NCBI GenBank assembly: GCA_964647275.1
Contig: CAZYFY010000005.1
Location: forward strand, 46,723 to 110,722
DNA from: an uncultured Brevundimonas sp.
Lineage (GTDB): Bacteria > Pseudomonadota > Alphaproteobacteria > Caulobacterales > Caulobacteraceae
DNA length: 64,000 nucleotides
Direction of reading: 5' to 3'
Shown here: positions 6,701-59,268 of the stretch, in pieces
Layout of the letters: each line of letters opens with the position of its first letter
How positions within the stretch are numbered: position 1 is the stretch's first letter
Program-made: the position numbers and the translations under genes
The notes under the pieces: model-generated
The model's database searches: none
Seen by the model: only the letters and a program-made list of their open reading frames with translations
Told to the model about the DNA's origin: nothing

Positions 6701-7672
6701 ATGCAAACTGATCCGTCGAGCCCGCGTCGGGGCCTCTATCCCGAAATCGATTCCTACGCCTCCGGCATGATGCCGACCGGCGGCGTCCATCAGATTTACT
6801 GGGAAGCCTCAGGCAATCCCCGCGGCAAGCCCATGCTGGTTCTCCATGGCGGACCGGGCGGCGCGACCAACCCGGGAATGCGGCGCTACTTCGACCCGTC
6901 GAAGTGGAACATCTTCATGTTTGACCAGCGTGGGTGCGGGCACTCCACGCCCAACGCCGTGCTCGACGACAACGACACCTGGAAGCTGATCGAGGATATC
7001 GAGCGGCTGCGCGAGCAGGCCGGCGTCGAGACGTGGACCGTCTTTGGCGGTTCGTGGGGCTCGACCCTGGCCCTGGCCTACGCCATCACGCACCCGCAAC
7101 GGGTCGAGGCCCTGATCCTTCGTGGCATCTTCCTGCTGACCCCCTCCGAGCTTCACTGGTTCTATCAGCACGGGGCGTCCGAGATTTACCCCGACGCCTG
7201 GGAACGGTTCGTGGCCCCCATTCCGCCGGCGGAACGCGGCGACCTCATGGGAGCCTATTACAAACGTCTGATGGGCGATGACGTCGAAGAGCGTCGTCGG
7301 TGCGCCGTCGCCTGGTCGAGCTGGGAAGGCGAAACCGTCAGCGCCCAGGGCCCGGATTCACGTCCCGACAAATTCGCCGACCCGGATTTCGCCGTCGCCT
7401 TTGCGCGCATCGAAAACTGGTACTTCACCAACAAGGGCTTCCTGGAAGATCCGAATTGGATTGTGAATTCCGTCGACCGAATCCGGAACATCCCGGCCTG
7501 GATCGTTCAGGGGCGGTTCGATGTCGTCACCCCCATGTCCGGCGCCTGGTCCCTGCATCGGGCCTGGCCGGAAGCCCGGTTCGAAGTCATCGGCGATGCC
7601 GGCCACGCGTCCACTGAGCCCGGCATCATTGATGGGCTCATTCGCGCCACGGATGCCGCCGCCAGGCTGTAG
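6701..7672 (+). CDS. pip: Prolyl aminopeptidase (proline iminopeptidase)
   Basis: LYPEIDSY...QIYWEASGNPRGKPMLVLHGGPGG, nucleophile elbow GGSWGSTL, C-terminal GHAS. Start moved to ATG 6701. Confidence 0.85.
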   Translation: MQTDPSSPRRGLYPEIDSYASGMMPTGGVHQIYWEASGNPRGKPMLVLHGGPGGATNPGMRRYFDPSKWNIFMFDQRGCGHSTPNAVLDDNDTWKLIEDIERLREQAGVETWTVFGGSWGSTLALAYAITHPQRVEALILRGIFLLTPSELHWFYQHGASEIYPDAWERFVAPIPPAERGDLMGAYYKRLMGDDVEERRRCAVAWSSWEGETVSAQGPDSRPDKFADPDFAVAFARIENWYFTNKGFLEDPNWIVNSVDRIRNIPAWIVQGRFDVVTPMSGAWSLHRAWPEARFEVIGDAGHASTEPGIIDGLIRATDAAARL

Positions 7673-7683
7673 ACGCCCCCGCC

Positions 7684-8223
7684 CTAGTCGGAGGTTTCCG
7701 GGCTCCTGTCGGCCTGGGTTTTTTCAACGCGTTCCTGAAGGGCAAAGCCAATGCGGCGCGGCGGCTCTTCCGGCTTCTGCTTGGGAACGGCGCTCAGCAA
7801 GACGTTGACCTGCGTATAGTGCTGAACCAACCGGATCGGGCGGCCAACACTGTTGACGCCCATGAACAGGATGAAGTCCGGCCCCCAAAAACCCAGATCG
7901 CGAATGGCGAAGGCCGCATCACCGGGACCGCTGGCCATCAAGGCTCCGATTTCGCTGTCTTCATCCAGCTGTTTCTCGAAGTCCTGAATCAGCCGCGATA
8001 GGCGAACAAAGGCCCACTCAGCCGGGTTCTCTCGCATCCGCAGACCCTCGGCCAGACCCGCTGCATCGTCATGCGTCGTCCAGGCGGTGATCGGCTGAGG
8101 GCAGTCCTCGGTACCTGGCGGGCACGGGGCTTCGGTCGTCGCCGCCGCCGCGGATGGCGCGTCGATCATGTCAGGCTGGGCACCGGCCAGAAGCGTGGTG
8201 GTGGGTTTCTGATGGTCCGTCAT
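7684..8223 (-). CDS. Conserved hypothetical protein, last gene of the mre/mrd operon
   Basis: 179-aa ORF starting 3 nt after the rodA stop on the same strand. No motif I can name. Confidence 0.5.
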   Translation of the reverse strand: MTDHQKPTTTLLAGAQPDMIDAPSAAAATTEAPCPPGTEDCPQPITAWTTHDDAAGLAEGLRMRENPAEWAFVRLSRLIQDFEKQLDEDSEIGALMASGPGDAAFAIRDLGFWGPDFILFMGVNSVGRPIRLVQHYTQVNVLLSAVPKQKPEEPPRRIGFALQERVEKTQADRSPETSD

Positions 8224-8226
8224 TCG

Positions 8227-9378
8227 TCAGATAACGCCTCGGCTCTTGGGCAGTTCAAGATAGCGGTGCACCCGCACGCTCTGGATCAGGCCAAAGCCGA
8301 TCATCACCGTCAGCATGACGGTTCCCCCATAGGAAAGCAGCGGCATGGGCACGCCGACCACGGGAGCCAGACCCATGACCATCGCCCCATTGATCAGCAC
8401 ATAGAGGGCAAAGGTCGCCGTCACCCCCGCGGCGGCGAGGCGCCCAAAGTGATTGTGGCTGAGGCTGGCGATCCTGAGCGAGATGGCGATGATGGCCCCA
8501 TAGATGGCCAGGATAAAAAACGCCCCCAGGAATCCGAACTCTTCGGCCAGGGTCGGAAAGATGAAGTCCGTGTGCTTTTCCGGCAGGAAGTTCAGCTGGC
8601 TCTGACTGCCCAGCCCATAGCCCTTACCCAGCAGCCCGCCCGACCCGATGGCGATCTTGGCCTGGGCGATGTGATAGCCCGCGCCCGATGGATCGGCCTC
8701 AGGGTTCAGCAGCACATCGACCCGCGCCCGCTGATAGTCGTGCAGGACGAAGAAATACATCATCGGTGCCACCACCAGGATGCCGGCAATGCCGGTCAGA
8801 ACGATGCGCCAGCTCAGGCCCGCCGCAAACATGATGGCAACGCCGGTAAAGAGGATCAGCAGGCTGGTCCCGAGGTCGGGCTGATGGGCCACAAGAACCA
8901 CAGGCACGGCAATCATCAGGGCTGGAATTATCAACTTCCAGTGCCACTTGGCCTCTTGTGCTGAGGCACCGTGGTACCATCGCGCCAGCGCCAGCACGAT
9001 GCCGAGCTTCATGATTTCCGAGGGTTGGAGACTGGTGAATCCAAGATCGAGCCAGCGCGTCGCCCCCATGCGGGTTTCCCCGAACAGTTCCACAGCAAGC
9101 AGCAACAACAGGCCCACGGCATAGAGGGGATAGGCCGCCGCATACCACCAACGGATATCGACCAGCGCCAGGCCGAGCATAACGACAAACACGGCACCGA
9201 ACCGGATCAGGTGGTTGCCGGCCCAGGGAGCCCAGCTCTCACCGGCCACCGAATAGAGCATCATCGCCCCGGCTCCGCCGATCAGAGCGATCAGCCCGGC
9301 CAGGCGCCAGTCAATCTGGCTCAATTTGACAGGAAGGCGGTCCCGTTCACCGGGACGGCTGATGGCGGAGGCGGTCAT
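8227..9378 (-). CDS. rodA: Rod shape-determining protein RodA (SEDS family peptidoglycan polymerase)
   Basis: FtsW/RodA/SpoVE-type polytopic protein (QPSEIMKL, PEKHTDFIF, LSYGGT). 4-nt overlap with upstream mrdA. Confidence 0.9.
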   Translation of the reverse strand: MTASAISRPGERDRLPVKLSQIDWRLAGLIALIGGAGAMMLYSVAGESWAPWAGNHLIRFGAVFVVMLGLALVDIRWWYAAAYPLYAVGLLLLLAVELFGETRMGATRWLDLGFTSLQPSEIMKLGIVLALARWYHGASAQEAKWHWKLIIPALMIAVPVVLVAHQPDLGTSLLILFTGVAIMFAAGLSWRIVLTGIAGILVVAPMMYFFVLHDYQRARVDVLLNPEADPSGAGYHIAQAKIAIGSGGLLGKGYGLGSQSQLNFLPEKHTDFIFPTLAEEFGFLGAFFILAIYGAIIAISLRIASLSHNHFGRLAAAGVTATFALYVLINGAMVMGLAPVVGVPMPLLSYGGTVMLTVMIGFGLIQSVRVHRYLELPKSRGVI

Positions 9379-11291
9379 GGGGCGACCTCGGGGGCAACAT
9401 CGGGTTCGGGAGCCGGGGGCGCGTTCACGCGGGCCAGCAGTTCCGGGTCCTTGAGAATGAGGGTTCGCATGATCTCACGAGCCTTGGGCGCAGCAATCGC
9501 GCCGCCCGACCGACCGCCATGCTGAACGATGACCGAAATCGCATAGCGAGGATCATCGATCGGCCCATAGGCGATAAACAGATTGTGGTCGCGATCGGCC
9601 CAGTTGCCACCGCGCCCGCGACTAGCGGTCGTATAGTTGCGGACCTGCGCGGTGCCGGTCTTGCCGGCCAGGCGCATGTTGCCCAGCCCGAGTTGGCTGT
9701 TACGGAAACCGGTGCCACCAGCATCCGTCACCATCTCCATGCCTTCTTGCAGAACGCGGACCTTGTCGAAATCGTAGCCCAGGGGCTCGAACGTGCCTTG
9801 CGCTCTTTCGGTTTCCCCAACCGACTTGACCAGCCGTGGCATGACCTTCTGACGGCCGTTTGCCAACCTCGACACATAGACAGCCAACTGCAGGGCATTC
9901 ACCTCGAGATAGCCCTGTCCAATGCCGTAGCTCGGAGATTCGCCGGCGAACCACCTCTGGTTCTCGCCTTGAAAATTCTCACGCTTCCAGGCGCGATCGG
10001 GGACCAGGCCTCTGCGCTGCCCCCCCAGGCCAATCTCAAAGATTTGGCCGAAGCCCATGTTGCGAGCCACCTCACCAATTGGATCCGGCCCCATCTCGAC
10101 CGCCAGGGTCATGAAATAGACGTTGCAGGAGTTCTTGATGGCGTTGCGCATGTCTTGCGGACCGTGCCGTCCGGTACAGGCAAAACGACGACCGAGGTAA
10201 TAGCCCCCGTTGCAGACGATGATGCGGTTCGGATCCCCTCCCCGCAGCATATTGGCCATGCCGACAACGGGCTTGAACGTCGACCCGGGCGCGTAGGTGC
10301 CTCCCACCGCCTTGTCCAGCAACGGGTTGCGCTCATAGTCCGCCCAGGCGCGATAAATCACGCTCGGCACGCCGGACACGAACAGATTGGGGTCGAACGA
10401 CGGGGCCGAGGCCATACACAGGATGTCTCCGGTGCGGCAATCCATGGCCACGACCGCGCCTGACTCCTCCTCAAAGACTTCCAGCGCCCGGTTCTGGGCA
10501 TCGGCATCCAGCGTCAGAACAACTTCGTCGCCCGGCGTGGCGGCACGCGAACCATCCGCATCTTCGCCCCGAACACGGCCCTCGGCATCAACCTCAACGC
10601 GCTGATAGCCCGGACGCCCACGCAGCTCCTTGTCCAGCGACCGCTCGACGCCCTGCCGTCCGATACGGAAGCCGGGATGATAGAAGATGGCGGGCGGTTC
10701 CTCGCCTTCCTCGCGCACGGCCTCAACGTCGCGGTCCGACACCTTGGCCACATAGCCGACCGTATGGGCGAAGCTGCCGCCGAATGGATAGAAGCGGACC
10801 TCGTCCATGGTCGCCAGAACCCCCGGCAACTCGTTCACGAACAGACTGACGCGCGCAAACTCTTCCCAGGTCAGGTCGGTCTTGACCGGAACCGGCACGA
10901 AGCGCGGCGCGGCATTGACCTCGCGAATGATACGGCGGCGGCGCTCGGCGGTATCCGGCAGTAGTCGGGCGATCAGATCCAGCGTTGCATCCAGATCCTG
11001 GGTCACATCGCGCACCACCGAGACGGAGAAGCTCGGCCGATTCCCCGCAATCATCACACCATTGCGGTCGGTGATCACGCCACGCGGCGCGACCTGAAGG
11101 CGGTCATTGAACCGGTTCGCCACGGCAGCAGACGCATACCGCCTCTGGTCGATGATCTGGAGGTGCGCCAGGCGCGCGCCCAGAACGCCCAGACCGGCCA
11201 AGGCCACCCCGCCAAGCAAAAAGGTACGCCGCAGGAACGAACCCTGGCGCTCATTCACCTCATTGAACTGAATCGGCGTGTGGTCGCTCAT
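9375..11291 (-). CDS. mrdA: Penicillin-binding protein 2 (elongasome transpeptidase)
   Basis: N-terminal TM, PBP dimerisation region, and transpeptidase motifs STFKP, SCN, KTGTA. Position between mreD and rodA. Confidence 0.9.
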   Translation of the reverse strand: MSDHTPIQFNEVNERQGSFLRRTFLLGGVALAGLGVLGARLAHLQIIDQRRYASAAVANRFNDRLQVAPRGVITDRNGVMIAGNRPSFSVSVVRDVTQDLDATLDLIARLLPDTAERRRRIIREVNAAPRFVPVPVKTDLTWEEFARVSLFVNELPGVLATMDEVRFYPFGGSFAHTVGYVAKVSDRDVEAVREEGEEPPAIFYHPGFRIGRQGVERSLDKELRGRPGYQRVEVDAEGRVRGEDADGSRAATPGDEVVLTLDADAQNRALEVFEEESGAVVAMDCRTGDILCMASAPSFDPNLFVSGVPSVIYRAWADYERNPLLDKAVGGTYAPGSTFKPVVGMANMLRGGDPNRIIVCNGGYYLGRRFACTGRHGPQDMRNAIKNSCNVYFMTLAVEMGPDPIGEVARNMGFGQIFEIGLGGQRRGLVPDRAWKRENFQGENQRWFAGESPSYGIGQGYLEVNALQLAVYVSRLANGRQKVMPRLVKSVGETERAQGTFEPLGYDFDKVRVLQEGMEMVTDAGGTGFRNSQLGLGNMRLAGKTGTAQVRNYTTASRGRGGNWADRDHNLFIAYGPIDDPRYAISVIVQHGGRSGGAIAAPKAREIMRTLILKDPELLARVNAPPAPEPDVAPEVAP

Positions 11292-11824
11292 CGGAACCTC
11301 AGGTCCCCGTCGTCGAACCGATCAACCAGCCAATTCGCGGCTGGAAAAACCAGAATGGTCGGCAAAAACTGGAAGAACAGGGCAATCAGGCTCGGCGGCT
11401 GATGCGCCGCCATCGTCGTCACCAGATAGACCACAAAGAAGGCCAGCGACGTCACCCCGGAATACCAGGCGAACAGGAGCCGCGTATCCTGTCCGGCAAT
11501 GAACGGGCGGGACACCAGCACGACCGAATAGGCCGTCAACAATCCCATCGGCCAGAGCCCGAGGCGATTGCCCCAGAACAGGTCGACGATCAGCCCGACA
11601 ATCAGCAGGGCCAGCGGGGCCAGGACAGATGGGCGGATCAATGGCCAGGCAAAGGCCAGGACCATCGGCATGACCGGTTCCGGCAGGGTCAGGCCGAACA
11701 CCTTGATGGGCGTGGCCAGGATCAGCGTCGCCGCAAGAACTGCCAGCGCCGGCAAGAGAATCCACTGTTGGGGGCCGACGACCTTGACCGCAGCGGCCCG
11801 GCGGGCGGGCGCAACCCGCCTCAT
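11288..11824 (-). CDS. mreD: Rod shape-determining protein MreD
   Basis: Small polytopic membrane protein between mreC and mrdA, with 4-nt overlaps on both sides. Confidence 0.8.
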   Translation of the reverse strand: MRRVAPARRAAAVKVVGPQQWILLPALAVLAATLILATPIKVFGLTLPEPVMPMVLAFAWPLIRPSVLAPLALLIVGLIVDLFWGNRLGLWPMGLLTAYSVVLVSRPFIAGQDTRLLFAWYSGVTSLAFFVVYLVTTMAAHQPPSLIALFFQFLPTILVFPAANWLVDRFDDGDLRFR

Positions 11825-12909
11825 TCGGTTACCCCGTCAGTTGCGGGCGGTTGGGCGGCCTGGGCGGCCGCCTGTGCTGCGGCTTGACGCGCGCGGGTAT
11901 CAGCCGCTTCACGCTCACGCGCCTGACGCTCGGCTTCGGCGCGGCGTTCAGCTTCGGCTCGCCGGCGCCCCTGAGCGTCGTCAATGCGGGCGACAACCTC
12001 CGGGCTGGGCGGCGGAGCCGTATCAAGTCCGGCGAGCGGAGGAGAATCGAGCGTCGAGCCGTCGGCCAACTGCGAGAAATTGTCGAACCGCATGACGCGC
12101 ACAAAGTCGATGGCACCTCGGTCAGAGAACAGCTTCACCCGCCACGAGCCGTCAATGCCCCGAGCGACCACGCCGATCGGCAGACCGCGCGGCAGCAGGC
12201 CACCGTCGCCCGACGATAGAATACGGTCGCCGACCTCGACGGAATCATTGCCCCGCACGAACTCCAGCCGAGGGTTCCCCGACCCATCGCCGCGCATAAT
12301 GGCCCGTGCATCCGTCCGGTCGACCAGAATTGGGATCTGGCTCGTGACATCGGTGACGAGCAGCACCCGGCTGACAGAGCCCGAGACGCCCGTAACGCGC
12401 CCAACCAGCCCATGTTCATTGATGACCGGATTGCCGACCTCGACCCCGCGATCACGTCCGACGTCAATCAAACGGGCGCGGCGGAACGGTCCCCTCGCCT
12501 CCGACACCGATCGGGCGCTGACCAGCGGCACGTCCGGTTCGACCCGAATGCCCAACAACGCCTCATACTGGCTGTTTAGGTTGCGCAGAGCGACGACGGC
12601 GTCACGCTCGGCTCGCAGGGTCGCAAGTTCTTCACGCAGCCGCCGGTTCTCGCTCACGGCAAAGAAATAGTCGTCGACGTAGTCCGATATCTGCCCGAGC
12701 CAACGGACCGGGGCGGCAAAGACCCCGCCGACCGGTGCCGCGCCGGCCTCAAAGCCGCTACGCACAGAGGCATGACCGGGTTCATCGGCTTCGCTGCGGT
12801 CGCTGAGCAGCAGGAAAATTGCCAGCGCAATGGCAATCACTAGCGCACCGCCTGCGGACCAGCCCAGCGGCACCCTCAAATTCTCGAACGGCGACTCACG
12901 CAGCGACAC
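11821..12909 (-). CDS. mreC: Rod shape-determining protein MreC (with low-complexity A/E/R/Q C-terminal tail)
   Basis: GTG start, N-terminal TM, coiled-coil (LREELATLRAERD), beta-barrel core (VINEHGLVGRVTGVS...). Follows mreB. Confidence 0.85.
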   Translation of the reverse strand: MSLRESPFENLRVPLGWSAGGALVIAIALAIFLLLSDRSEADEPGHASVRSGFEAGAAPVGGVFAAPVRWLGQISDYVDDYFFAVSENRRLREELATLRAERDAVVALRNLNSQYEALLGIRVEPDVPLVSARSVSEARGPFRRARLIDVGRDRGVEVGNPVINEHGLVGRVTGVSGSVSRVLLVTDVTSQIPILVDRTDARAIMRGDGSGNPRLEFVRGNDSVEVGDRILSSGDGGLLPRGLPIGVVARGIDGSWRVKLFSDRGAIDFVRVMRFDNFSQLADGSTLDSPPLAGLDTAPPPSPEVVARIDDAQGRRRAEAERRAEAERQAREREAADTRARQAAAQAAAQAAQPPATDGVTE

Positions 12910-12956
12910 CGGGCAGCTCCCAAACGGAGTGAAGAACCCCGCCTACCATGAGTCCC

Positions 12957-14108
<1,152 letters not shown>

Positions 14109-14187
14109 TTAGCGGACTAGGGGTCCGTTTGCCCGTATGATGAACGGATTACAAGCCCCTCTCGCAGAAGGATTTGGTGACGCAAGG

Positions 14188-14799
14188 TCACACCTTCGCG
14201 ATCCCCTCCTGATCGAACACGCGCTGGACCGCCGGACGGGCCTGAACCGCGTCGAGGTGGGCGTTCATTCGTGGGAATTCTGCCGGATCCAGAAGACCAC
14301 CCTGACGTGCCCAACGCTCAAATACCATCAGGTAAGGATCGGCCGTCGTATAGGCGTCGCCCATGGCCCACGGCCCGATCAGCAGATGGTCCTCAACCAG
14401 GCGCAGCTTGGCCAGGGTCACCTCACGCTGAGCCGCCTTTTCGGCCTCACCCAGCGGATAGAACAACAGCTTGCCGATGTTGGGATGAACGGACGAACCG
14501 AGGAACCCATTGAACGAGGTCAGCTGAGCGGACGCCCAGGCGTCGTCGGTCGGCGCCAGGCCCGCCTCGGGGTGGGTCGCAGCCAGATAGGCCAGAATGG
14601 CGACGTTCTCCGTCAAGGGACCGTGCTCCGTCAGAAGCACCGGGGTCGAGCCCTTTGGACTCATGGCCAGAAACTCAGGCCGCTTCTGCTCACCGGCCTT
14701 CAGATTGACCGCCTCCAGCTCATAGGGCGCGCCGATTTCCTCAAGGACGATGTGGCCGGCCAGCGAGCAGGCACCGGTCGAATAATACAGCTTGTTCAT
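14188..14799 (-). CDS. Glutathione S-transferase
   Basis: MNKLYYSTGACSLAGHIVLEEIGAPYELEAVNLKAGEQ... resembles beta-class GST. Start trimmed to the ATG at 14799. Confidence 0.8.
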   Translation of the reverse strand: MNKLYYSTGACSLAGHIVLEEIGAPYELEAVNLKAGEQKRPEFLAMSPKGSTPVLLTEHGPLTENVAILAYLAATHPEAGLAPTDDAWASAQLTSFNGFLGSSVHPNIGKLLFYPLGEAEKAAQREVTLAKLRLVEDHLLIGPWAMGDAYTTADPYLMVFERWARQGGLLDPAEFPRMNAHLDAVQARPAVQRVFDQEGIAKV

Positions 14800-14846
14800 G
14801 GGAGACTCCTGAATGTTCCTTCTAGGTAGGAGCCGCCGGCAAACGG

Positions 14847-15596
14847 TCAAGCTCCCACATCATCGATCTCAAGACCGGTTTCGACTTCGCGTCCGGCCCG
14901 GCGTCGACGGATCCACTCGCGTACCGCCAGCATCAGGACCAGCCACAGGGCCGCAGCCCCGGCCAGAAGCACCGAATGCCAGATGCCGTCGCCTTGGACC
15001 GCAGAGAAGACCGCGCCGCCGAAAAAGGCGACCAGCGCCGTCTTGGGCAGGACGCCGAGCGCGCACCCCGCCAGAAAGGCCCAGAAATTCGCCCGCGTCG
15101 CCCCGAACGCCATGTTGACCACGATGAACGGGGCCGACGGGACGTTGCGAATGACGAAGCTGGCGTAAAAGGCATTGCGTCCGACAAACCGCTTCAGGCG
15201 CTCGATTGTGCGGCTTCCCAGCCGATCCAGCAGGCGCGCCGTGGGGCCCCGCCCCAGCCAGTAGGTAACGCCGGCTGAAATCACCGTCGCGGCCCAGCTG
15301 TACCAGAACCCCAGCGAGGGCCCGAACGCGACAACACAGGCGGCAATCAGGATGAACTGGGGGGCCCCCAGAAACGCCGAAACGACAAACAGCAACACCG
15401 TCACCGCAAAGGCCCAGGGGCTGCCCGAATACCCCTGTAGCCAATGTTCCATCCGGGCCTCGGCTTCGACCCCCAGACTGGATTTGCCGACCAGGAACAT
15501 GATGACCACGACCGCCAGCAGCACCGCTGTCACCGCCGCTGTGCGCCAGCGGCGGGAGTCCATTTCGGTCAGGAAGGCGAGGATGCGCGAAAGCAT
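14847..15596 (-). CDS. TVP38/TMEM64 (DedA-related, VTT domain) membrane protein
   Basis: Polytopic membrane protein with FGPSLGFWYSWAATVISAGVTYWLGR and NVPSAPFIVVNMAFG, typical of the VTT domain. Confidence 0.65.
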   Translation of the reverse strand: MLSRILAFLTEMDSRRWRTAAVTAVLLAVVVIMFLVGKSSLGVEAEARMEHWLQGYSGSPWAFAVTVLLFVVSAFLGAPQFILIAACVVAFGPSLGFWYSWAATVISAGVTYWLGRGPTARLLDRLGSRTIERLKRFVGRNAFYASFVIRNVPSAPFIVVNMAFGATRANFWAFLAGCALGVLPKTALVAFFGGAVFSAVQGDGIWHSVLLAGAAALWLVLMLAVREWIRRRRAGREVETGLEIDDVGA

Positions 15597-15636
15597 GGTC
15601 AGGACTTAGCGCGGCGATGGGCGCGCGAGAAGACGC

Positions 15637-16698
15637 TCACTCTTCCTGTGGAACGGGTGGACTGACCGCCATGCTGGAAAGACGCCACGCTCCCGCGGTG
15701 TCCCGTGTCCAGGTCTGACGCATGGCGAATACTGATCCCTGCGACTCGATGGACCCCGAAACCCAAACCGAGCCGCCGGACCCCTCCAACGATTGGGCCC
15801 AAGCATCTCCATCGCCGAGTCTCTCGGCCATGTCATCCCGTGCCGCAGAGCCAGTTAGCCGCGCTTGCTGATCCCATTCCAAAACAAAATCGGGTGTCGT
15901 CAAGGTCGCCAAGGCACCAGCAGACTGCCTCACCGGACCATCCAGAAGGCTGGCAACCTCGGCAGCGGCGCTGCGGTTCCCCCCCAGACTAAGGCATCGG
16001 GCAAGTCTGGCTGACTCGTTGCGATAGTATTCTGGATCGAGGTGATTGCAGAACGCAAACCCGTTGACGGCAAGCTCTGAGAATCGAAACGCGGCCTCAA
16101 AGAGATCGTCAGACAGGCAGGCGCTGCGACGCAGCACCTGAATGCGATCGTCATCAAAAACTTCAATAACCGTGCTCCAGCCATGCACACAAATTGTGAT
16201 CTCCTCGACCCCGTTCGCATCGACCCTTGTTGGTAGATCGCCATGATCGAGCTCTGGATCAGCATCCCGCGCCAGTTCGATCAACTCTTCTGCCCGCTCG
16301 ACGGCCCAATAGGTTGCCGAGCGTTCAAGTGATCTGACAACAAAGGTGTCGGACTGCGCGCGCAGTCCTCGAACTCCAAAGACGGCTATCGGCCCTTCTC
16401 GCCGGTCTTCAGACTCGCGCCAGAGAACTGAGACCGCCGGCATTAGTCGCCCGTAGCCGTCGAGGGTGAATACGCGGACACCTCGTAGTCCTGACGCTTG
16501 GACATCGCCAGCAGGAGCCATCTCCAGCAGGGCAGATACCTCGCGCCAACGATCCAACTCGCAGGACACGTGGCCGGAGGCGTTCACGCGGTCGTCAGCA
16601 GGATATTCCGCCTGCGCAAAGGTTGGCGAGGCAATAGCCCAGATGATCCAGCCCATACTGGCGATCACGTTGAAGCGCGCCGCTCCAAGCAATTGCAT
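15637..16698 (-). CDS. Hypothetical secreted protein (lower-GC islet)
   Basis: Signal-like MQLLGAARFNVIASMGWIIWAIASPTFAQA. No recognisable domain. Composition is visibly more AT-rich than the flanks. Confidence 0.5.
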   Translation of the reverse strand: MQLLGAARFNVIASMGWIIWAIASPTFAQAEYPADDRVNASGHVSCELDRWREVSALLEMAPAGDVQASGLRGVRVFTLDGYGRLMPAVSVLWRESEDRREGPIAVFGVRGLRAQSDTFVVRSLERSATYWAVERAEELIELARDADPELDHGDLPTRVDANGVEEITICVHGWSTVIEVFDDDRIQVLRRSACLSDDLFEAAFRFSELAVNGFAFCNHLDPEYYRNESARLARCLSLGGNRSAAAEVASLLDGPVRQSAGALATLTTPDFVLEWDQQARLTGSAARDDMAERLGDGDAWAQSLEGSGGSVWVSGSIESQGSVFAMRQTWTRDTAGAWRLSSMAVSPPVPQEE

Positions 16699-43218: not shown

Positions 43219-43229
43219 GAGAAGGTTCC

Positions 43230-43314
43230 AGGGACTAGGTTTTAGGGGTTAGGGAAACTGTTGTGGCGGTTGGCGGTGAGTTCCCTAGAACCTAGTCCCT
43301 AGAACCTAGTCCCT
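43230..43314. repeat. CTAG-rich inverted/tandem repeat (AGGGACTAGGTTyTAGGG motif: one forward, two reverse copies)
   Basis: Forward copy 43230-43248. Reverse copies CCCTAGAACCTAGTCCCT at 43283-43300 and 43297-43314, forming a 14-bp tandem unit. Confidence 0.8.
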
Positions 43315-45169: not shown

Positions 45170-45451
45170 TTCCACTGTCTACCAATCCTCGTCCACTTTG
45201 AGCGTGTAATCTCGCCCTTCTGATACCCGGTCGGCGCGATCAGACCCGCCCTTCATGCCCGCCCATGTCCGCCGGGTTAGGATATCTGACAGTCCCGGCT
45301 GATGTCTTGCCTAGGGCCTGCGGTCTTTGACATTCCGACCTCTCGCGGTCCGCACGCCAGCGGCTCGCAAAATATCCGCTGACCTGGCCTGAATGCCCGT
45401 ATCCCAGGACGTGGACGCTGCGGTTTTTGGTCCACTGTGGAAACTCACTCC
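45170..45451. repeat. Dispersed ~281-bp element, copy A
   Basis: Colinear with 57384..57664 with almost no indels. Conserved blocks TTCCACyGTCTACCAATCCTCGTmCACTTT, GTGTAATCTCGCCC, TTAGGAT, GGTCTTTG and GTCCACyGTGGAAACT. Confidence 0.75.
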
Positions 45452-45460
45452 AACCGGGGC

Positions 45461-48937: not shown

Positions 48938-49063
48938 CTCACTCATCAAGACCGGCTGAGGGATAGGCCCTTTGAAGCCGGGGCAACCTTCCAGAACTTC
49001 CCAGTTCTGGAGATGGTGCCAACTCCTGCGGCGGCTGTTTCAGTCGGCGAGAGATGAGTGAAG
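48938..49063 (+). promoter_or_regulatory. SAM-I (S-box) riboswitch aptamer, leader of the metX operon
   Basis: CTCACTCATCAAGA-CCGGCTGAGGGATAGGCCCTTTGAAGCCGGGGCAACC-[CCAGAACT..AGTTCTGG]-ATGGTGCCAACTCC...GAGAGATGAGTGA matches S-box conserved blocks. P1 is 48939-48947 pairing with 49054-49062. Hairpins follow before the GTG at 49145. Confidence 0.85.
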
Positions 49064-53265: not shown

Positions 53266-54363
53266 ATGGCCCTGAAAGTCGCGATCGTCGGCCTGCCGAA
53301 TGTCGGCAAGTCCACCCTGTTCAACGCCCTCACCAAGACGGCGGCGGCCCAGGCCGCCAACTATCCGTTCTGCACCATCGAGCCGAACACCGGCGACGTC
53401 GCCGTGCCCGAGCCGCGCCTGGACGTGCTCGCCAAGATCGCCGGCTCGAAAGAGATCATCCCCTCGCGCATCACCTTCGTCGATGTCGCCGGTCTGGTGC
53501 GCGGTGCCTCCAAGGGCGAGGGCCTGGGCAATCAGTTCCTGGCCAATATCCGTGACTGTGACGCCATCGCCTTCGTCGCTCGCTGCTTCGTCGATGACGA
53601 CATCACCCACGTCGAGGACCGCATCGATCCGATCGGCGATCTGGAGATCATCGAGACCGAGCTGATGCTGGCCGACCTCGAAAGCCTCGAACGCCGCGTC
53701 GTCCAGACCGAGAAACGCGCCAAGGGCGGCGACAAGGAATCGCAAGGCCAGCTCAAGCTGATGAACCTCGCGCTGGACCAACTGCGCGAGGGCAAGCCGG
53801 CCCGCCTGGCCGAGATCTCAAAGGAAGACCGCAAGGGCTGGGACATGCTCCAGCTCCTGACCGCCCTGCCCGCCCTCTATGTCGCCAACGTCGATGAGGC
53901 TTCCGCCGCCGGCGGCAATGACCTGTCGGCCAAGGTCGCCGAACGCGCCCGCGCCGACAATGCCGAGACCGTCATCATCTCCGCCCAGATCGAGTCCGAG
54001 ATCGCCACGCTCGACGACGCCGAACAGGCCGAGTTCCTCGAAACCCTCGACCTGACCGAGCCGGGCCTGAACCGCCTGATCCGTTCGGCCTATGACCTCT
54101 TGGGCCTGCAGACCTATTTCACCGTCGGCCCGAAAGAGGCCCGCGCCTGGACCATCCACATCGGCGACACCGCCCCCCAGGCCGCAGGCGTCATCCACAC
54201 CGACTTCGAAAAAGGCTTCATCCGCGCCGAAACCGTCGCCTACGACGACTTCGTCGCCCTGGGCGGTGAATCCAAAGCCCGCGAGGCTGGCAAACTCCGC
54301 GCCGAAGGCAAGAGCTACGTCGTCAAGGACGGCGACGTGATGCACTTCCTGTTTAATAACTGA
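53266..54363 (+). CDS. ychF: Ribosome-binding ATPase YchF
   Basis: GLPNVGKSTLFNAL, DVAGLV.GASKGEGLGNQFL, and the C-terminal TGS-like domain. Confidence 0.95.
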   Translation: MALKVAIVGLPNVGKSTLFNALTKTAAAQAANYPFCTIEPNTGDVAVPEPRLDVLAKIAGSKEIIPSRITFVDVAGLVRGASKGEGLGNQFLANIRDCDAIAFVARCFVDDDITHVEDRIDPIGDLEIIETELMLADLESLERRVVQTEKRAKGGDKESQGQLKLMNLALDQLREGKPARLAEISKEDRKGWDMLQLLTALPALYVANVDEASAAGGNDLSAKVAERARADNAETVIISAQIESEIATLDDAEQAEFLETLDLTEPGLNRLIRSAYDLLGLQTYFTVGPKEARAWTIHIGDTAPQAAGVIHTDFEKGFIRAETVAYDDFVALGGESKAREAGKLRAEGKSYVVKDGDVMHFLFNN

Positions 54364-55085
54364 CGCCCCGGGACACGAACGCTTTTCACCGAAAAGCGTA
54401 CGTGTCCCGATCCAGTGCGCCCCAACGACGTGCGCGGCCGCCCCCTCGCCGGCTCCGTCAATCGCCGCCCAAACCTCGCCTCCAACGCCTTGACCCAGTC
54501 CCCTGCCCCCAGGGGCCGCCCGGTCGTGGCAGCACGCTGCAGCTTGCGCTGTGCGTCCGCCGAGACGTCACACGCAAACAGCTGATCCAACTCCGGCCCG
54601 AACCGCTCGACCACCGGCTCCGGCGTCAACAACGGATCGGCCTGCCCGCTCAGATGCGCCTTCACGCTCGACCACGGCCAGTCGACCGCCGTCTGCGTCA
54701 AACCGGCGCGCACTGAGTTCAGGCCGACATAGCGAACACAGGCCCGCAGATAGTCCTCATCCATCGGAAATGAGGCGAACCGCCCCTGCCACAGATACCC
54801 GCGCCACCTCTCGCGACAGTTGATATGGCGCGTGTAGCGCAGATGCGTCGTCCCCACTGCCTTCGCCAGCCCCTCGGTCGTCTTCGGCGTGGCGATCAGA
54901 TGCACATGGTTCGGCATCAGACAGTAGGCCCAGACCTCGACCCCGGCCTCAGCAAGTGCCTCCGCCGCGATCTGCAGATAGGTCAGATAATCGGCGTCAC
55001 GAAAGAACGTCTGCTGACGCCGATTGCCCCGCTGGGTGACATGATGCGGGCATCCCGGAACAACAACGCGCGCCATACGCGGCAT
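54315..55085 (-). CDS. REP-associated tyrosine transposase (RAYT; IS200/Y1 HUH family)
   Basis: HUH motif LMPNHVHLI and catalytic-Tyr region RYVGLNSVRAGL. Flanked by REP palindromes. The ORF tail reads through REP1 and overlaps the ychF 3' end by 49 nt. Confidence 0.85.
   Translation of the reverse strand: MPRMARVVVPGCPHHVTQRGNRRQQTFFRDADYLTYLQIAAEALAEAGVEVWAYCLMPNHVHLIATPKTTEGLAKAVGTTHLRYTRHINCRERWRGYLWQGRFASFPMDEDYLRACVRYVGLNSVRAGLTQTAVDWPWSSVKAHLSGQADPLLTPEPVVERFGPELDQLFACDVSADAQRKLQRAATTGRPLGAGDWVKALEARFGRRLTEPARGRPRTSLGRTGSGHVRFSVKSVRVPGRQLLNRKCITSPSLTT
54370..54408. repeat. REP palindrome 1 (GGGACACGAACGCTTTTC-ACC-GAAAAGCGTACGTGTCCC)
   Basis: 18-nt arms with one mismatch, 6 nt after the ychF stop and inside the 3' end of the RAYT ORF. 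Confidence 0.85.
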
Positions 55086-55150
55086 GACCAGACCTCCGTT
55101 CGCCCACCCTTGTTCACTCTTCGTTCCCAGATTTCAAGCGCCGCTGCACC

Positions 55151-55193
55151 GGGACATGCTCGCATTTCGCCCGCAAAATAGCATGCGTGTCCC
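55151..55193. repeat. REP palindrome 2 (GGGACATGCTCGCATTTC...GCATGCGTGTCCC)
   Basis: Imperfect palindrome 65 nt upstream of the RAYT start. Same GGGACA..GC..GC.TTTC family as REP1 and REP3. Confidence 0.8.
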
Positions 55194-56962
55194 GCGACCA
55201 GGAGGTACGCTGGCGGTTAAAGAGTGTGTGTCCCTGTTTCCTCGGCACCCTGCGCGGCGCAGCGGGCAGCGCCCTCACCCAGGGCGTGGCCGTCGCCACC
55301 GGTCTGCAGGATCAGTTCAACTGGGCCGACGTCGCCGTCCAGGCCCTCGGCGGTGGCGTCGGAGCCAGGGTCCAGGCCTGGCCCGGCGCGGACCGGTTCG
55401 GGGTCGTCTCCGGGATAGCCGGTGGCTTCGCCGGCGCCGGTGCCCGCTCCCTCGTCGAAGGCACGAGCTTCGGCGACAACCTGATGAGCGCCCTGCCGGG
55501 GATCATCGGCAATACGATTGGGAATGCCGTGGCGAGCGGGATCACGGCCAGAGGGGCGGCGAGACCGGGGCAGGGTTTGACCAAGGCCATGCGGTCCACA
55601 CCCGGCTACGCCACCGACGATGTGCTCAACTTCGACCTGCTGCACGCCAGGATGGGGGATGGGCTTTGGTTGGCCTCCGATCCGGGCGGCGGCTACCTGA
55701 CATTGGGAGCCGAAGGGGTCGCCTTCCAGGCCGAACTTGAAGCCATGCGTGGCGAAGGGGCTCGTAACATTGACCGTCGGATGCAGATTAACGGCCAGAC
55801 TGTTCGCGCCTCTGGGGTCAGCTTGCCCCAGTATCTTGGACAACGTGCCGACGGGCTGCACTACTATTCGGTGATGCCGGTCCATTCTCAGGTGCACGTT
55901 GATGGAGTGCTGCGCGCGACGGAGCTGACCTCGCGACCGGCGATTTTCACCAGCGCCGAACGACGCGCCTTTGAGGTTGAATTCTACCTCGACGGAGAAG
56001 GTACCGATCAGGCCGTCTACTGGGCCGTGCGGGATAGGCACAATAGCGACATCGCCAGTCAAGCGATCCGGGCCGAGACGGGGGTCTATAACCTGACCGG
56101 CGTAGACATGACCCTGACGATTTCGGATCCCTATTACGGCCTTTGGGGTGACGAAGGGTTTGCCTTCCGCACGGGCCTGGAAAACCACGTGCTGGGTAAT
56201 CTCATGGCGGGTCAGGCCATTGTGGCCGATCCGGTCGGGGCGGTGAAGGCGGTCGGCACACAGGTGCTCTATACCATTGATCCCGGCAACTGGGGCGAGA
56301 TCGTTCAGAACTCGTGGGATGGCGTAGTCGGCTACGTCGGCGGGCTAAGGCTGGCCGCTGAACACGGACGCCTCTCAGAAGCCCTGGCGGAAGACGCAGG
56401 CGGCGGTTCGCTGGCGGCGCTAGGCACGGTGGTTGCACCATTTTCTAGTTCCACCAGGCGAGCCGTTATCGACACCATAGATCTCGATCCAGCGGACGTG
56501 GCGTCGCATATCAACCGGATCAGAGATGGTGGTGGTCATGCATTCCAGCGGCACGGCGCTCATATTGACGACCCGGCAGTCTTGCGAAGAGCGATTACAG
56601 GTGAAGCTCCCGACGGTACCTTTAGTAGGGTAAGTGGAGTCGTCCACCGCGAATCGTCCACGATTTTCGACAGCGACGACCTGATGGTCAGGGCCGATCT
56701 GCTTTTGCGGCGTGATCGCCTGGGGCCGGAGGTAGCTCGGTTATCTCGAAACGGCCCGATTGCCGACGGCCACCGCCTATCGATTGAAGATGTCGATGCG
56801 GGCCGGATAGTTGGCCATGGCTTCAGACCCGCCGGACGATCTCTAGATGTTTACGGACCACCGGCTCCCATACTGCCAACCGCGATCACGGGGAGGTTCA
56901 TCTTTGACGCATCTTCAGGCCAGTGGTTAACTCACACCCTTTTCCCAACGGTTCCAAAATGA
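55187..56962 (+). CDS. Polymorphic-toxin remnant: 5'-truncated, Gly-zipper-like region, unknown middle domain, intact C-terminal toxin-like module (possibly RNase-type)
   Basis: The ORF opens at a GTG inside REP2, so the first ~20 aa are repeat-encoded and there is no secretion domain. Gly-rich GIAGGFAGAGA / GIIGNTIGNAVASG segments. C-terminal GGGHAFQRHGAHIDDPAVLRRA ... GRFIFDASSGQWLTHTLFP. Followed by an ATGA-coupled small gene. Confidence 0.6.
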   Translation: MSRDQEVRWRLKSVCPCFLGTLRGAAGSALTQGVAVATGLQDQFNWADVAVQALGGGVGARVQAWPGADRFGVVSGIAGGFAGAGARSLVEGTSFGDNLMSALPGIIGNTIGNAVASGITARGAARPGQGLTKAMRSTPGYATDDVLNFDLLHARMGDGLWLASDPGGGYLTLGAEGVAFQAELEAMRGEGARNIDRRMQINGQTVRASGVSLPQYLGQRADGLHYYSVMPVHSQVHVDGVLRATELTSRPAIFTSAERRAFEVEFYLDGEGTDQAVYWAVRDRHNSDIASQAIRAETGVYNLTGVDMTLTISDPYYGLWGDEGFAFRTGLENHVLGNLMAGQAIVADPVGAVKAVGTQVLYTIDPGNWGEIVQNSWDGVVGYVGGLRLAAEHGRLSEALAEDAGGGSLAALGTVVAPFSSSTRRAVIDTIDLDPADVASHINRIRDGGGHAFQRHGAHIDDPAVLRRAITGEAPDGTFSRVSGVVHRESSTIFDSDDLMVRADLLLRRDRLGPEVARLSRNGPIADGHRLSIEDVDAGRIVGHGFRPAGRSLDVYGPPAPILPTAITGRFIFDASSGQWLTHTLFPTVPK

Positions 56963-57261
56963 CAGCTACGCTAAACGAGGGTGAGCGCGCCGCGCTTGAT
57001 GTCGTTCTCATGCAGATAGATCCACGGTTTGAAGATAATCAAGAGGCTGCGTACCAAATAGCCTTCAATATTCTTTCTCTTCGTCCCGACATAAGATCTT
57101 GCTATAGATCAGCAATCAGAAAGACAATGTCCGATTTGAATTTCGATTTTAGCGATATTATCGAGAAGTATGAGCTAAATTACGGATCTGAGCACGAGAC
57201 GGCTCGCGAAACCGTACTCCGAATGCTGGTAGAGCCGTTCGAGAAGGTAGGCCTGTTATGA
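56959..57261 (+). CDS. Putative cognate immunity protein (100 aa, acidic, helical)
   Basis: ATG overlaps the toxin TGA (ATGA). About 46% G+C by hand count in a GC-rich genome. No family recognised. Alternative GTG start at 56923. Confidence 0.55.
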   Translation: MTATLNEGERAALDVVLMQIDPRFEDNQEAAYQIAFNILSLRPDIRSCYRSAIRKTMSDLNFDFSDIIEKYELNYGSEHETARETVLRMLVEPFEKVGLL

Positions 57262-57383
57262 CGCAATTGCCTGATTGGGACGCCCGTCCCCTGCACCCTT
57301 CGAAAACCCTCTCCTCGCCCTCACCGCCGCCAATATCGGCGATGCAAGCCGGTCAGGTCCGACCCTGGATGCGCCCACATCCA

Positions 57384-57664
57384 TTCCACCGTCTACCAAT
57401 CCTCGTACACTTTCGGGGTGTAATCTCGCCCGTCTCGATACGGGTTTGCGGCCTCGGGCCTGATCCTTATCCCCGTGGCCTTTCGGTCGATTAGGATGGA
57501 CAACAGGTCGGGCTGAGCCTTCGGCCGCCCTTATGGTCTTTGGCATCGTCGTTGTTTGCAGGCCGCGCCTCTAGCGGTTCGCCATGGCCCCGTTGTCGCG
57601 GTCCTATCCCCATATCCGCATCCGTAGACCTCGGACTTTTCCGTCCACCGTGGAAACTGACACC
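57384..57664. repeat. Dispersed ~281-bp element, copy B
   Basis: See copy A. Lies between the immunity-like gene and the YD/LysM fragment. Confidence 0.75.
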
Positions 57665-58099
57665 TTCGCCCGACCGAGACCCGGCACTATTACGACGTCA
57701 ATGGCCGTCTGACCTTTGCCGACATTCACGATGGGCGTCATCGCACGGTCAGCTTCGTGACCGATGGGGCCGGTCAGGTGCTGAGCCGCCAGGAGTTCTC
57801 CAGCGCGACGACCAATCCTAAATCCGTGGCCTATTATTTTGATGGGCTGAAGGTGGCGGATATCACCAATGATGGGGCCCAGATCACCGACTATGCGTCG
57901 GTGGTGGGGCGTCGGGTGCGCACGGGTCCGGGGACGGGGACCGGTCCGTTCCAGGGGGGCGGCTGGGGCGCGATCCAGGAGGCGGACTTCTCCCAGGCCT
58001 ATGATCCGATCCATCCCAATGCCCTGCCCGCCACGGCCCGCTCGGTGGTGGTTCAGGGCGGCGACACGCTGTCGTCGGTGGCGCGGGCCTTTGCAATGC
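57661..58099 (+). pseudogene. Fragment of a YD-repeat/LysM-type polymorphic toxin gene
   Basis: Frame opens at 57661: RHYYDVNGRLTF (YD repeat), YYFDGLKVADITNDG, ADFSQAYDPI, VVVQGGDTLSSVARAF (start of a LysM motif) cut by REP3. No start or N-terminus. Runs in frame into the radical-SAM gene. Confidence 0.55.
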
Positions 58100-58138
58100 G
58101 GGACACGCACGCATTTCGGGGAAAAGCGAGCATGTCCC
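58100..58138. repeat. REP palindrome 3, inverted relative to REP2
   Basis: GGGACACGCACGCATTTC-GGG-GAAAAGCGAGCATGTCCC. Its reverse complement begins GGGACATGCTCGC, identical to the first 13 nt of REP2. Confidence 0.8.
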
Positions 58139-58188
58139 GGGGGCCGTTTTGTTCTTGCTTTGTTCGCTCCGCCTACTATCTTTCCCCG

Positions 58189-59268
58189 ATGCCCACCAAG
58201 AGCGAGAACAAGGGACGCGGCGCGCGGTCGAATGCGACCAGCCGCTATATCGCCGACAAGCGCGAGGCCTTCGATGACGGCTGGGATGAGGCCGAGGATG
58301 CGCCCCCTCGCCTCGATACCGTCCTCATGCCCGAGCGGACGCGCAAGATCATCTCGACGAACGATAGCCCGGACATCGGCTTTGACCGCTCGATCAATCC
58401 CTACAAGGGCTGCGAGCACGGTTGCATCTATTGCTACGCCCGGCCCAACCATGCGTACCTGGGCCTCTCTCCCGGTCAGGATTTCGAGACGAAGATCTTC
58501 TTCAAGCCCGATGGCGCCCGTCTGCTTGAGGCCGAACTGTCCCGCCCGAAATACCGGCCCAAGCTGATCCACATCGGCGGCGACACCGACCCCTATCAGC
58601 CCGCCGAGCGCAAGCTGGAGATCACCCGCCAGATTCTTGAGGTCATGGACCGGTTCAACCACCCGGTCTCGATCATCACCAAGTCGAACCTGATCACCCG
58701 CGACATCGACGTGCTGGCCCGCCTGGCCGAGCGCAATCTGGCCGCCGCCTGCATCTCGATCACCACACTGGACCGCAGCCTCGCCCGCGACATGGAGCCG
58801 CGCGCCGCCACGCCGATGCGCCGCCTCGACGCCATCCGCCGTCTGTCCGACGCCGGGGTGCCGGTCATGGTCGGCTTTGCCCCCGTCATCCCCGGCCTGA
58901 ACGACCACGAGATGGAGGCGGTGCTCGAGGCCGCCGCCGAAGCCGGTGCCGATCGGGCCATGTTCGTCACTCTCAGGCTGCCTCTCGAGATCAAGGCCCT
59001 GTTCCGGGAATGGCTGGACGACGCGCGGCCCGATCGCGCCAAGCGCGTCATCTCCCTGATCCGTCAGGCGCGCGGCGGTCGTGACTATGATCCCGAATGG
59101 GGTTCGCGCATGAGGGGGACCGGACCCCTCGCCGATCTCCTGTCCCAGCGGCTCGCCAAGGCCTGCGCCCGCCTGAAGCTGAATGTCTCACGCCGCCAGC
59201 TCGACACCACCGCCTTCAAGGTTCCGCCGCGCCCCGGCGACCAGCTCGGCCTGTTCGACGCTGCCTGA
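58189..59268 (+). CDS. Radical SAM protein (PA0069/SplB-like family)
   Basis: CEHGCIYCY (CxxxCxxC). Starts MPTKSENKGRGARSN..., typical of this family. The track ORF from 57757 is a chimera with the toxin fragment. Confidence 0.8.
   Translation: MPTKSENKGRGARSNATSRYIADKREAFDDGWDEAEDAPPRLDTVLMPERTRKIISTNDSPDIGFDRSINPYKGCEHGCIYCYARPNHAYLGLSPGQDFETKIFFKPDGARLLEAELSRPKYRPKLIHIGGDTDPYQPAERKLEITRQILEVMDRFNHPVSIITKSNLITRDIDVLARLAERNLAAACISITTLDRSLARDMEPRAATPMRRLDAIRRLSDAGVPVMVGFAPVIPGLNDHEMEAVLEAAAEAGADRAMFVTLRLPLEIKALFREWLDDARPDRAKRVISLIRQARGGRDYDPEWGSRMRGTGPLADLLSQRLAKACARLKLNVSRRQLDTTAFKVPPRPGDQLGLFDAA

Follow-up and report, generated by a model that had tools for sequence, protein, structure and literature searches.

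In a 64,000-nucleotide stretch of DNA from an uncultured Brevundimonas sp. (positions 46,723 to 110,722 of contig CAZYFY010000005.1; hereafter the window), an open reading frame (ORF) of 591 codons is followed directly by one of 100 codons. We conclude, with a high degree of confidence, that the two genes are an orphan toxin/immunity cassette of an alphaproteobacterial family of Rhs-type polymorphic toxins. The cassette retains only ~100 conserved pre-toxin residues (the stub), followed by a bipartite C-terminal region with ~310 amino acids (aa) that are unique to this gene and a 158-aa domain that is predicted to be a ribonuclease. The parts of the cassette are as follows.

55250 to 55555, plus strand: conserved glycine-rich pre-toxin region (aa 22-123), 45-72% identical to 10 homologues (alignment A2)
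55556 to 56485, plus strand: variable middle region (aa 124-433), a singleton with a G+C content at third codon positions (GC3) of ~0.70
56486 to 56959, plus strand: predicted RNase A-like toxin domain (aa 434-591; 158 aa), from a HMMER family and from AlphaFold2 and Foldseek
56552 to 56554, plus strand: putative active-site His456, from motif alignment
56588 to 56590, plus strand: putative active-site Arg468, from motif alignment
56936 to 56938, plus strand: putative active-site Thr584, from motif alignment
56942 to 56944, plus strand: putative active-site Phe586, from motif alignment
56959 to 57261, plus strand: probable immunity gene, 100 aa, isoelectric point (pI) 4.6, 45.9% G+C, from its ATGA coupling and a partner-family profile

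The ORF reading of the window placed the toxin gene at 55187 to 56962 on the plus strand, with a GTG start, and the small gene at 56959 to 57261 on the same strand, with an ATG at 56959 that overlaps the toxin TGA as ATGA. Coordinates, start and overlap were exactly as described in an earlier, model-generated reading of the sequence (the first-pass annotation), and all of the peptide motifs quoted there were found in the toxin ORF translation (ALGGGVGA, GIAGGFAGAGA, GIIGNTIGNAVASG, GGGHAFQRHGAHIDDPAVLRRA and the C-terminal tail GRFIFDASSGQWLTHTLFP). The 591 and 100 codons are uninterrupted by a frameshift. An in-frame GTG at 56923 is an alternative start of the small ORF and would give a product of 112 aa.

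The two genes differ in base composition. The small gene, described earlier as acidic and ~46% G+C, has a measured G+C content of 45.9% (GC3 0.485), compared to 62.9% for the toxin ORF and 64.5% for the window. The minimum in a 300-nucleotide (nt) profile (0.44) was at 56900-57199. The 100-aa product has 18 Asp and Glu residues and 11 Lys and Arg residues, with a pI of 4.6. GC3 was 0.87 in the conserved stub (aa 21-135), 0.70 in the middle region (aa 136-430), 0.55 in the RNase domain (aa 431-591) and 0.49 in the immunity gene, compared to 0.86-0.87 in the flanking housekeeping genes (ychF and a radical S-adenosylmethionine (SAM) gene). We interpret this gradient in composition as a stub homogenized with resident genes and joined to a foreign toxin/immunity module, and the drop in G+C over the toxin and immunity genes suggests that this part was acquired horizontally.

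The relatives of the 591-aa protein place it in a family. A search of 5.8 billion protein clusters gave ten relatives, which align only at residues ~20-135 of the toxin ORF and then diverge completely. Their C-termini are WHH/colicin-DNase, ParB-like, lipase-3-like or unassigned, and their upstream parts contain LysM, a hydrophobic (likely transmembrane) segment and the first copy of a repeat, 'GSAxTQGxGVATGLQxKF'. The stub in the window spans the second repeat ('GSAxTQGxGVATGLQxxF') through 'FGDNLMxALPxIIGNTIGN', is common to full-length genes and other orphans, and has a host-like GC3. A scan of GTDB representative genomes, one per species and without the source species of the window, detected 300 relatives, which belong to Sphingomonadales, Caulobacterales, Hyphomonadaceae and allies. 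The shared residues ~20-135, the interchangeable toxin C-termini and the 300 relatives with orphan arrays agree with the original proposal of a polymorphic-toxin module.

The best relative in the genome scan was from Brevundimonas intermedia (53% identity). In this genome, the main gene encodes a protein of 3917 aa with RHS repeats (E = 1e-132, locus L001) and LysM at 3093-3139. Two ORFs come after it: the first is of 241 aa, and the second is an 870-aa orphan that contains LysM and ends in Tox-REase-7. Across 78 loci, main genes encode proteins of 3300 to >3970 aa and there are up to six orphans behind one main gene. The variable region after the glycine zipper is usually 260-520 aa in the family and is 468 aa in the window ORF. 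The 5' ends of the orphans are scattered, and some are exactly at the point where homology to the window ORF starts (P0005 and P0010; L078 and L010). Short relatives of the P0005 and P0010 type are 460-640 aa long and located downstream of giant main genes.

Five main genes that are complete at the 5' end begin with DUF6531 and RHS repeats. The family architecture is DUF6531, RHS repeats, LysM, hydrophobic (likely transmembrane) segment, glycine zipper and variable C-terminus, and the part of this order that precedes the glycine zipper is what homologues supply for the N-terminal region thought earlier to be missing from the window ORF. No PAAR, VgrG, known secretion signal or trafficking domain was recognized in the five complete N-termini, only DUF6531. 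Full-length members (L026:1592-2191; also L033 and L051) open with a glycine-rich N-terminus (MVAVFTGAERGLERGSGTILGN...), which is followed by DUF6531.

The RHS repeat was not found in the 591-aa ORF using Pfam. Because RHS repeats are present in the full-length relatives, the window ORF derives from an Rhs-type family and is not itself an Rhs protein. Pfam and NCBIfam also gave no trafficking or secretion domain in this ORF, as expected from its earlier description as an orphan without an N-terminal delivery domain, and no secretion feature was apparent by eye in the N-terminal 21 residues (no dedicated signal-peptide predictor was run). Because there is no N-terminal trafficking domain, and because residues 1-21 are repetitive extragenic palindromic (REP) and junction sequence, we filed the gene as an orphan cassette.

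The first-pass annotation had named Rhs, CdiA and related toxins as the loci in which such modules occur. A relationship to CdiA through DUF637 was rejected: the score was 15.7 bits (cut-off 26.6), and comparison of the glycine-zipper alignment to a genuine DUF637 segment with hhalign gave a probability of 0.6%. There was no VENN in the 591-aa translation, and no Fil_haemagg repeat was found. Because the DUF637 link was not confirmed by profile comparison, we consider the family to be Rhs-type and not CdiA-type.

Many of the stub matches in draft genomes (L005, L016, L022, L046, L048, L058 and L067) are a few hundred bases from contig ends. Assemblies seem to break at the multi-copy conserved glycine-zipper stub.

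We searched for the toxin domain with exhaustive HMMER in 1.84 billion protein representatives. There were matches in 56 proteins, including the window ORF, with E down to 2.6e-17. All matches except P0060 cover the last ~150 residues and are always at the extreme C-terminus of the matching protein, in proteins of 124-5341 aa. The carriers include proteins with RHS and LysM (P0022), CdiA-like proteins with Fil_haemagg/DUF637 (P0027, P0034 and P0044) and a protein with PT-HINT (P0031). This position at the extreme C-terminus of varied carriers is the distribution expected of a polymorphic-toxin C-terminal domain. The consensus of a 39-member alignment is GHAxxRHGGxVTDxQLxxRAxTGxAPDGS...SSTAFxSDxLL..AD..R...GRGY.R.G..GP...WxTxTIYP. 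The window domain is 28-39% identical to the other alignment members. Of the 30 columns with ≥85% conservation among those 38 sequences, it retains 25, and these include every invariant column.

The predicted structure of the domain resembles a known toxin. From the 39-sequence alignment, AlphaFold2 predicted a structure with a predicted local distance difference test (pLDDT) score of 94.9 and a predicted template modeling (TM) score of 0.87. In a Foldseek comparison to the PDB, chains B and D of 5E3E were the sole significant target and the only matches with E below 0.01 (5E3E_B: E = 3.9e-4, probability 1.00, root-mean-square deviation 2.7 Å). The TM score of this match was 0.82 when normalized to the target and 0.61 when normalized to the query, the window domain being ~40 residues longer. 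The next match had an E of 0.056 and a TM score of 0.12. 5E3E is the CdiA-CT/CdiI complex of Yersinia kristensenii ATCC 33638. Batot et al. 2017 (PMC5435912) showed that this CdiA-CT (Ykris) folds like RNase A and cleaves RNA independently of metal.

Short motifs connect the two toxins. His175, Arg186, Thr276 and Tyr278 are required for activity of the Ykris toxin, Tyr278 is frequently Phe in homologues, and CdiI covers the active site (PMC5435912). We worked out Ykris peptides from the primers used for mutagenesis in PMC5435912 and found that QRH456GAHIDDPAVLRR468AITG and THT584LF586P of the window ORF align with LIDRH175VGKTEAELLNR186VSTGN and IIT276GY278P of Ykris, which also align with RHGGxVTDxQLxxRAxTG and TxTIYP of the family. 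The His, Arg and Thr equivalents are invariant or nearly so across the 39 members, two of which match PF18431 (RNAse_A_bac) below threshold (E ~0.03; best 0.026). The model and the motifs together support an RNase A-type fold for the toxin domain, with the His, Arg and Thr equivalents kept and the Tyr replaced by Phe. The first-pass annotation had suggested an RNase A-like toxin, and the match to the fold of 5E3E and the aligned active-site peptides bear out that suggestion. Judged by sequence, the domain is at best a distant subfamily of PF18431.

The middle region, between the stub and the toxin domain, has few detectable relatives. A k-mer search with aa 135-591 found only the window protein itself. 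With exhaustive HMMER, a few matches reach back to aa ~338; otherwise, the only match was to a unit in P0060. This unit of ~78 aa, which is present three times in P0060 (1013 aa, with PKD domains), resembles aa 241-318 (55907-56140; E = 2e-5 in a library search) and may be a small beta-domain. Apart from this one short repeat unit, the earlier statement that the middle region matches nothing known was upheld in both protein searches. Single-sequence AlphaFold of aa 135-591 gave a pLDDT of 32 and no usable model. The region is possibly an entry/translocation part, or a linker, of the bipartite C-terminal region.

A conserved gene follows the toxin domain at other loci. A k-mer search with the 100-aa protein found only itself. 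An exact-sequence look-up of the 591-aa protein gave no record, and the 100-aa protein led only to a 1.3-kb Logan contig (run SRR22378311) that is 100% identical to the window. Loci that share the toxin domain were examined: the genome scan supplied one (L031), exact-protein look-up five, and a metagenome scan with a seven-sequence alignment as query seven. At each of the 12 loci where the downstream sequence could be read, a gene for 90-100 aa starts no more than a few bases from the toxin stop. These partner genes are one clear family (pairwise E down to 1e-24), with the consensus ..YxYIDHVLANYF..SExEAI..L..SPE..YSW..E(E/D)EAxxYA..LW (alignment A6). Neither Pfam nor NCBIfam contains a model of the partner family, and a search with the immunity profile gave no PDB sequence match, including the CdiI of 5E3E. 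One of the 12 members (not the window gene) matches CdiI_2 at E = 0.029, below threshold.

The window protein was detected with a hidden Markov model of the 12 members. It scored 18.1 bits in a gap-free colinear match of 67 residues, compared to a maximum of 9.9 bits for 2000 composition-matched shuffles (empirical p < 1/2000). The window small protein probably belongs to the partner family as a divergent member at the margin of detection, and this divergence is in keeping with the 28-39% identity of the toxin domain to other members. In support of the tightly coupled immunity gene of the first-pass annotation, a small gene in this position is conserved at other loci with the toxin domain. The further suggestion that the immunity protein matches nothing was right for Pfam, in which there was no match to the window protein (including CdiI_2, PF18593), but otherwise needs correction, since the protein is probably not a complete orphan family.

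Locus L031 (a Terricaulis sp. metagenome-assembled genome, JASGJR010000001.1), at 1000-16000, has six family cassettes in one 17-kb stretch. One of them, an orphan of 702 aa, shares the RNase A-like toxin domain and has a partner gene. Three small ORFs upstream of this orphan, of 118, 141 and 122 aa, look like spare immunity genes; the first two are paralogues.

Several results weigh against reading the locus as an orphan RNase toxin/immunity cassette. The toxin domain is under the gathering score of PF18431, there was no Pfam match for the ORF, and sequence searches of the PDB with the ORF and with the toxin-domain profile did not recover 5E3E or anything meaningful. Because of these results, the link to RNase A depends on the predicted structure and the short motifs. 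The active-site equivalents were assigned by motif alignment and not from the geometry of the model. For the small protein, comparison to the partner family with hhalign gave a probability of only 59% (E = 9e-5, 57 colinear columns), and the family-invariant Ser-Trp pair is Asp-Phe. BLASTP of the window protein against a single member, the L031 partner, found nothing; a likeness between these two proteins that we had noted by eye was discarded, and the signal came only from the 12-member profile. A sigma-70-like promoter was not found in 54300-58300, and there was no clear Shine-Dalgarno sequence before the toxin start or the small-gene start. There is no full-length family member inside the 64-kb window, which leaves a role as a recombination reservoir without a partner there. 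Finally, we only infer the RNase activity and its neutralization by the small protein.

The toxin ORF starts in a repeat, and repeats are found on both sides of the cassette. The elements around the cassette are as follows.

54315 to 55085, minus strand: REP-associated tyrosine transposase (RAYT) gene, Pfam Y1_Tnp, E = 1e-12, 48.6 bits (cut-off 23)
54370 to 54409, no strand: REP1 hairpin (GGGACACGAACGCTTTTC...GAAAAGCGTACGTGTCCC), directly 3' of the ychF stop codon, with ~44 nt that can be aligned with REP2 and REP3
55151 to 55193, no strand: REP2 hairpin, the 3' arm of which contains the toxin ORF GTG (55187)
55187 to 55249, plus strand: non-native leader (aa 1-21), with codons 1-3 derived from the REP and codons 4-21 (55196-55249) a unique junction, unlike the family
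57384 to 57680, no strand: element resembling a miniature inverted-repeat transposable element (MITE-like), ~300 nt long and bounded by terminal inverted repeats of ~14 nt, separating the immunity gene from the second cassette fragment
57676 to 58095, plus strand: 5' fragment of a second cassette, from a YD-like region to the first ~11 LysM residues (..VVQGGDTLSSVARAF)
58100 to 58138, no strand: REP3 hairpin, with its best alignment to REP2 inverted, at the 3' truncation point of the second cassette

REP1 and REP2 are palindromes of ~45 nt that flank the RAYT gene, and REP3 is 2.9 kb away. The REP pattern search gave two matches, compared to none in 100 shuffles. The RAYT also matches REP_Tyr_transpos of NCBIfam (E = 5.6e-19), with a score of 68.5 bits, under the cut-off of 80. 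The RAYT ORF extends across REP1 and overlaps the ychF stop codon.

Homology of the toxin ORF to the family begins at residue 22 (LRGAAGSALTQG). Upstream of the equivalent of this residue, the relatives have LysM, the hydrophobic segment and thousands of RHS-repeat residues, and we agree with the first-pass annotation that the ORF has no native N-terminus. As also described there, the GTG is inside REP2. The additional claim that the first ~20 residues are encoded by the repeat was not correct: the REP2 repeat unit spans 55146-55195 only, and so contributes codons 1-3. That the REPs and the RAYT caused the truncation of the cassette is suggested by their position only.

Downstream of the immunity gene are remains of a second cassette. 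This fragment, REP3 and the MITE-like insert are absent from the first-pass annotation. In the 870-aa orphan of B. intermedia, the fragment corresponds to aa 36-168, the stretch that runs up to LysM (41% identity, E = 1e-27); its identity to P0003 is 32% (E = 7e-18). It stops at REP3 and continues in frame into a PA0069-family radical SAM gene. The radical SAM ORF (57757-59268, plus strand, 503 aa) has a profile match that begins only at residue 152, which places the true start near 58210 and makes the 503-aa call an artefact. No further family member was found within the window.

We considered a simple inversion between REP2 and REP3 as a way to join the two fragments and rejected it. In neither orientation does the fragment that ends in LysM run on directly into the ORF, which begins in the second TQG repeat. 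Missing between them are ~190 residues, which would comprise the remainder of LysM, the hydrophobic segment and the first TQG repeat. Two independently truncated cassettes in an array fit better than a single inversion. The order of a stub with C-terminal region and immunity gene, a MITE-like insert and the 5' end of a second cassette, with REPs at the outer edges, indicates a decayed array. A second MITE-like copy at 45170-45460 is ~70% identical, and the ends are TTCCACyGTCTACC ... GGTCCACyGTGGAA. No Rfam family matched the MITE-like element or anything else at the toxin locus.

On a full-length carrier, a C-terminal region of this kind would be delivered into neighbouring bacteria. There the toxin would degrade RNA without a metal cofactor, and the small acidic protein would protect the producer by binding over the active site. 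The toxin in the window does not have a delivery scaffold, and would not be exported. With no scaffold, no promoter-like site and a start codon taken from a REP, the toxin is most probably not deployed. One reason for the cassette to persist may be that the immunity gene guards against kin armed with the same toxin; another may be that the GC-homogenized stub allows the cassette to recombine into a full-length gene at another place in the genome. The locus as a whole is, in our reading, an array in decay. Sequence alone does not separate three fates of the cassette (kin protection, recombination stock, or being on the way to loss).

There is an alternative explanation that we consider possible, if rather unlikely: the genes are a dead pseudogene remnant of a destroyed rhs-type locus, unexpressed and without function, and the reading frames are intact because truncation was recent. 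The damage at the locus is consistent with this explanation. The second cassette is broken off after 11 LysM residues, and the locus has taken up three REPs and a MITE-like element. The promoter search gave no candidate site, the ORF opens with 21 non-native residues and a start codon from a REP, and the toxin C-terminal region and the immunity protein are singletons among the 5.8 billion clusters. The coding capacity of the two genes argues the other way. All 591 and 100 codons are open with no frameshift, the ATGA coupling is intact, and the toxin domain keeps 25 of 30 highly conserved positions and every invariant one. In addition, many short orphans of this family begin at the same 5' boundary, apparently as a normal state.

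We also considered an addiction module similar to a toxin-antitoxin system, in which a cytoplasmic toxin is restrained by the immunity protein and a genomic island is thereby stabilized. The translational coupling through the ATGA overlap, the apparently intact catalytic domain and the mobile neighbourhood of RAYT, REPs and MITE-like element could be accommodated by such a module. We consider it improbable: the promoter search gave no sign of expression, nothing points to a labile immunity protein, and the order of toxin then immunity gene and the Rhs, CdiA and PT-HINT carriers are those of exported polymorphic toxins. Least probable is a complete small effector exported independently, by insertion of the glycine zipper into membranes or by loading onto another secretion system. 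It could explain why several relatives of 460-640 aa start near the same point (P0005 and P0010) and why the glycine-zipper segment is hydrophobic. Against it, these short relatives sit behind giant main genes, in the position of orphans, Pfam and NCBIfam gave no secretion-related domain, none is apparent by eye in the N-terminal 21 residues, and those 21 residues are junction sequence that begins in a REP.

As an orphan Rhs-type cassette, the locus can be compared to known systems. The window toxin domain (aa 434-591) is similar in predicted fold to the CdiA-CT of 5E3E, and its RH..T(D/E)..L..R..TG and T-x-(Y/F)-P motifs align with His175, Arg186, Thr276 and Tyr278. In both systems, a polymorphic toxin ends in this domain, and a small immunity gene comes next. 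The differences are that the window domain is only 17-18% identical and is below the Pfam threshold, that the equivalent of Tyr278 is Phe, that the carrier of the window family is Rhs-type and not CdiA, and that the window immunity protein is not detectably related to CdiI-Ykris.

The framework for Rhs/YD-repeat polymorphic toxins with orphan rhs-CT/rhsI cassettes is that of Zhang et al. 2012 (PMC3482391). The window family has the RHS-repeat main gene, variable C-terminus and downstream immunity gene of these toxins, as well as arrays of 5'-truncated orphans that retain a conserved stub and low-GC toxin/immunity modules. It differs in having LysM, a hydrophobic segment and two glycine-rich TQG repeats between the RHS core and the C-terminus, and in that PAAR, VgrG or another trafficking domain was not found at the family N-terminus. 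The window ORF itself differs further in being without an RHS repeat.

Ribocin (RbcN) of Pseudomonas aeruginosa has the CdiA-CT-Ykris/RNase A fold with essential H60, T159 and Y161, and is described as a nuclease that cleaves eukaryotic ribosomes (PMC13189344). By description, it is a further bacterial protein with this fold and an essential His...Thr-x-Tyr set. Unlike the window toxin, ribocin is not described as a polymorphic toxin with an immunity gene. The window is also similar to REP/RAYT systems in having a Y1 transposase flanked by two palindromic REPs of ~45 nt, with a third REP 2.9 kb away, a likeness that concerns the neighbourhood and not the toxin.

The RNase A fold was long thought to be restricted to vertebrates. 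The domain described here adds a confidently modelled, sequence-divergent branch to the few bacterial proteins predicted or known to have it, and the branch is paired with a conserved immunity family that is outside Pfam/NCBIfam models. The subfamily signature, GHAxxRHGG...TGxAPDG...GRGY...WxTxTIYP, has no Pfam model, and a description of it was not found in a limited literature search. In practical terms, the annotation of the 591-aa "hypothetical protein" should be changed to a probable orphan RNase toxin cassette and that of the 100-aa gene to its probable immunity gene. The results also point to a large, poorly characterized family of giant RHS-LysM proteins in Sphingomonadales/Caulobacterales with rich orphan arrays.

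Rhs-type polymorphic toxins with orphan cassettes are textbook systems. What is new is modest: the divergent RNase A-like subfamily outside Pfam, the immunity family, the ~310-aa singleton region and the giant RHS-LysM family. Current understanding is not overturned, and a specialist would find the result tidy rather than surprising. A more ambitious reading, which we put forward tentatively and think doubtful as a whole, combines a distinct RNase A-like toxin/immunity subfamily, the ~310-aa singleton as a new cell-entry module, and shuffling of cassettes by the RAYT and the inverted REP2-REP3 pair. The more speculative element is that the RAYT and the inverted REPs around the 2.9-kb cassette segment helped to cut or move toxin cassettes; if true, this would be a new route of cassette shuffling.

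There were two other features in the window. A SAM riboswitch is present at 48940-49060 on the plus strand (Rfam RF00162, 88.9 bits, full-length). A low-GC hairpin (AGGTTCCAGGGACTAGGTTTTAGGG), unusual for a background of 65% G+C, has arms of 25 nt at 43223-43247 and 43283-43307 that are 92% complementary and 35 nt apart.

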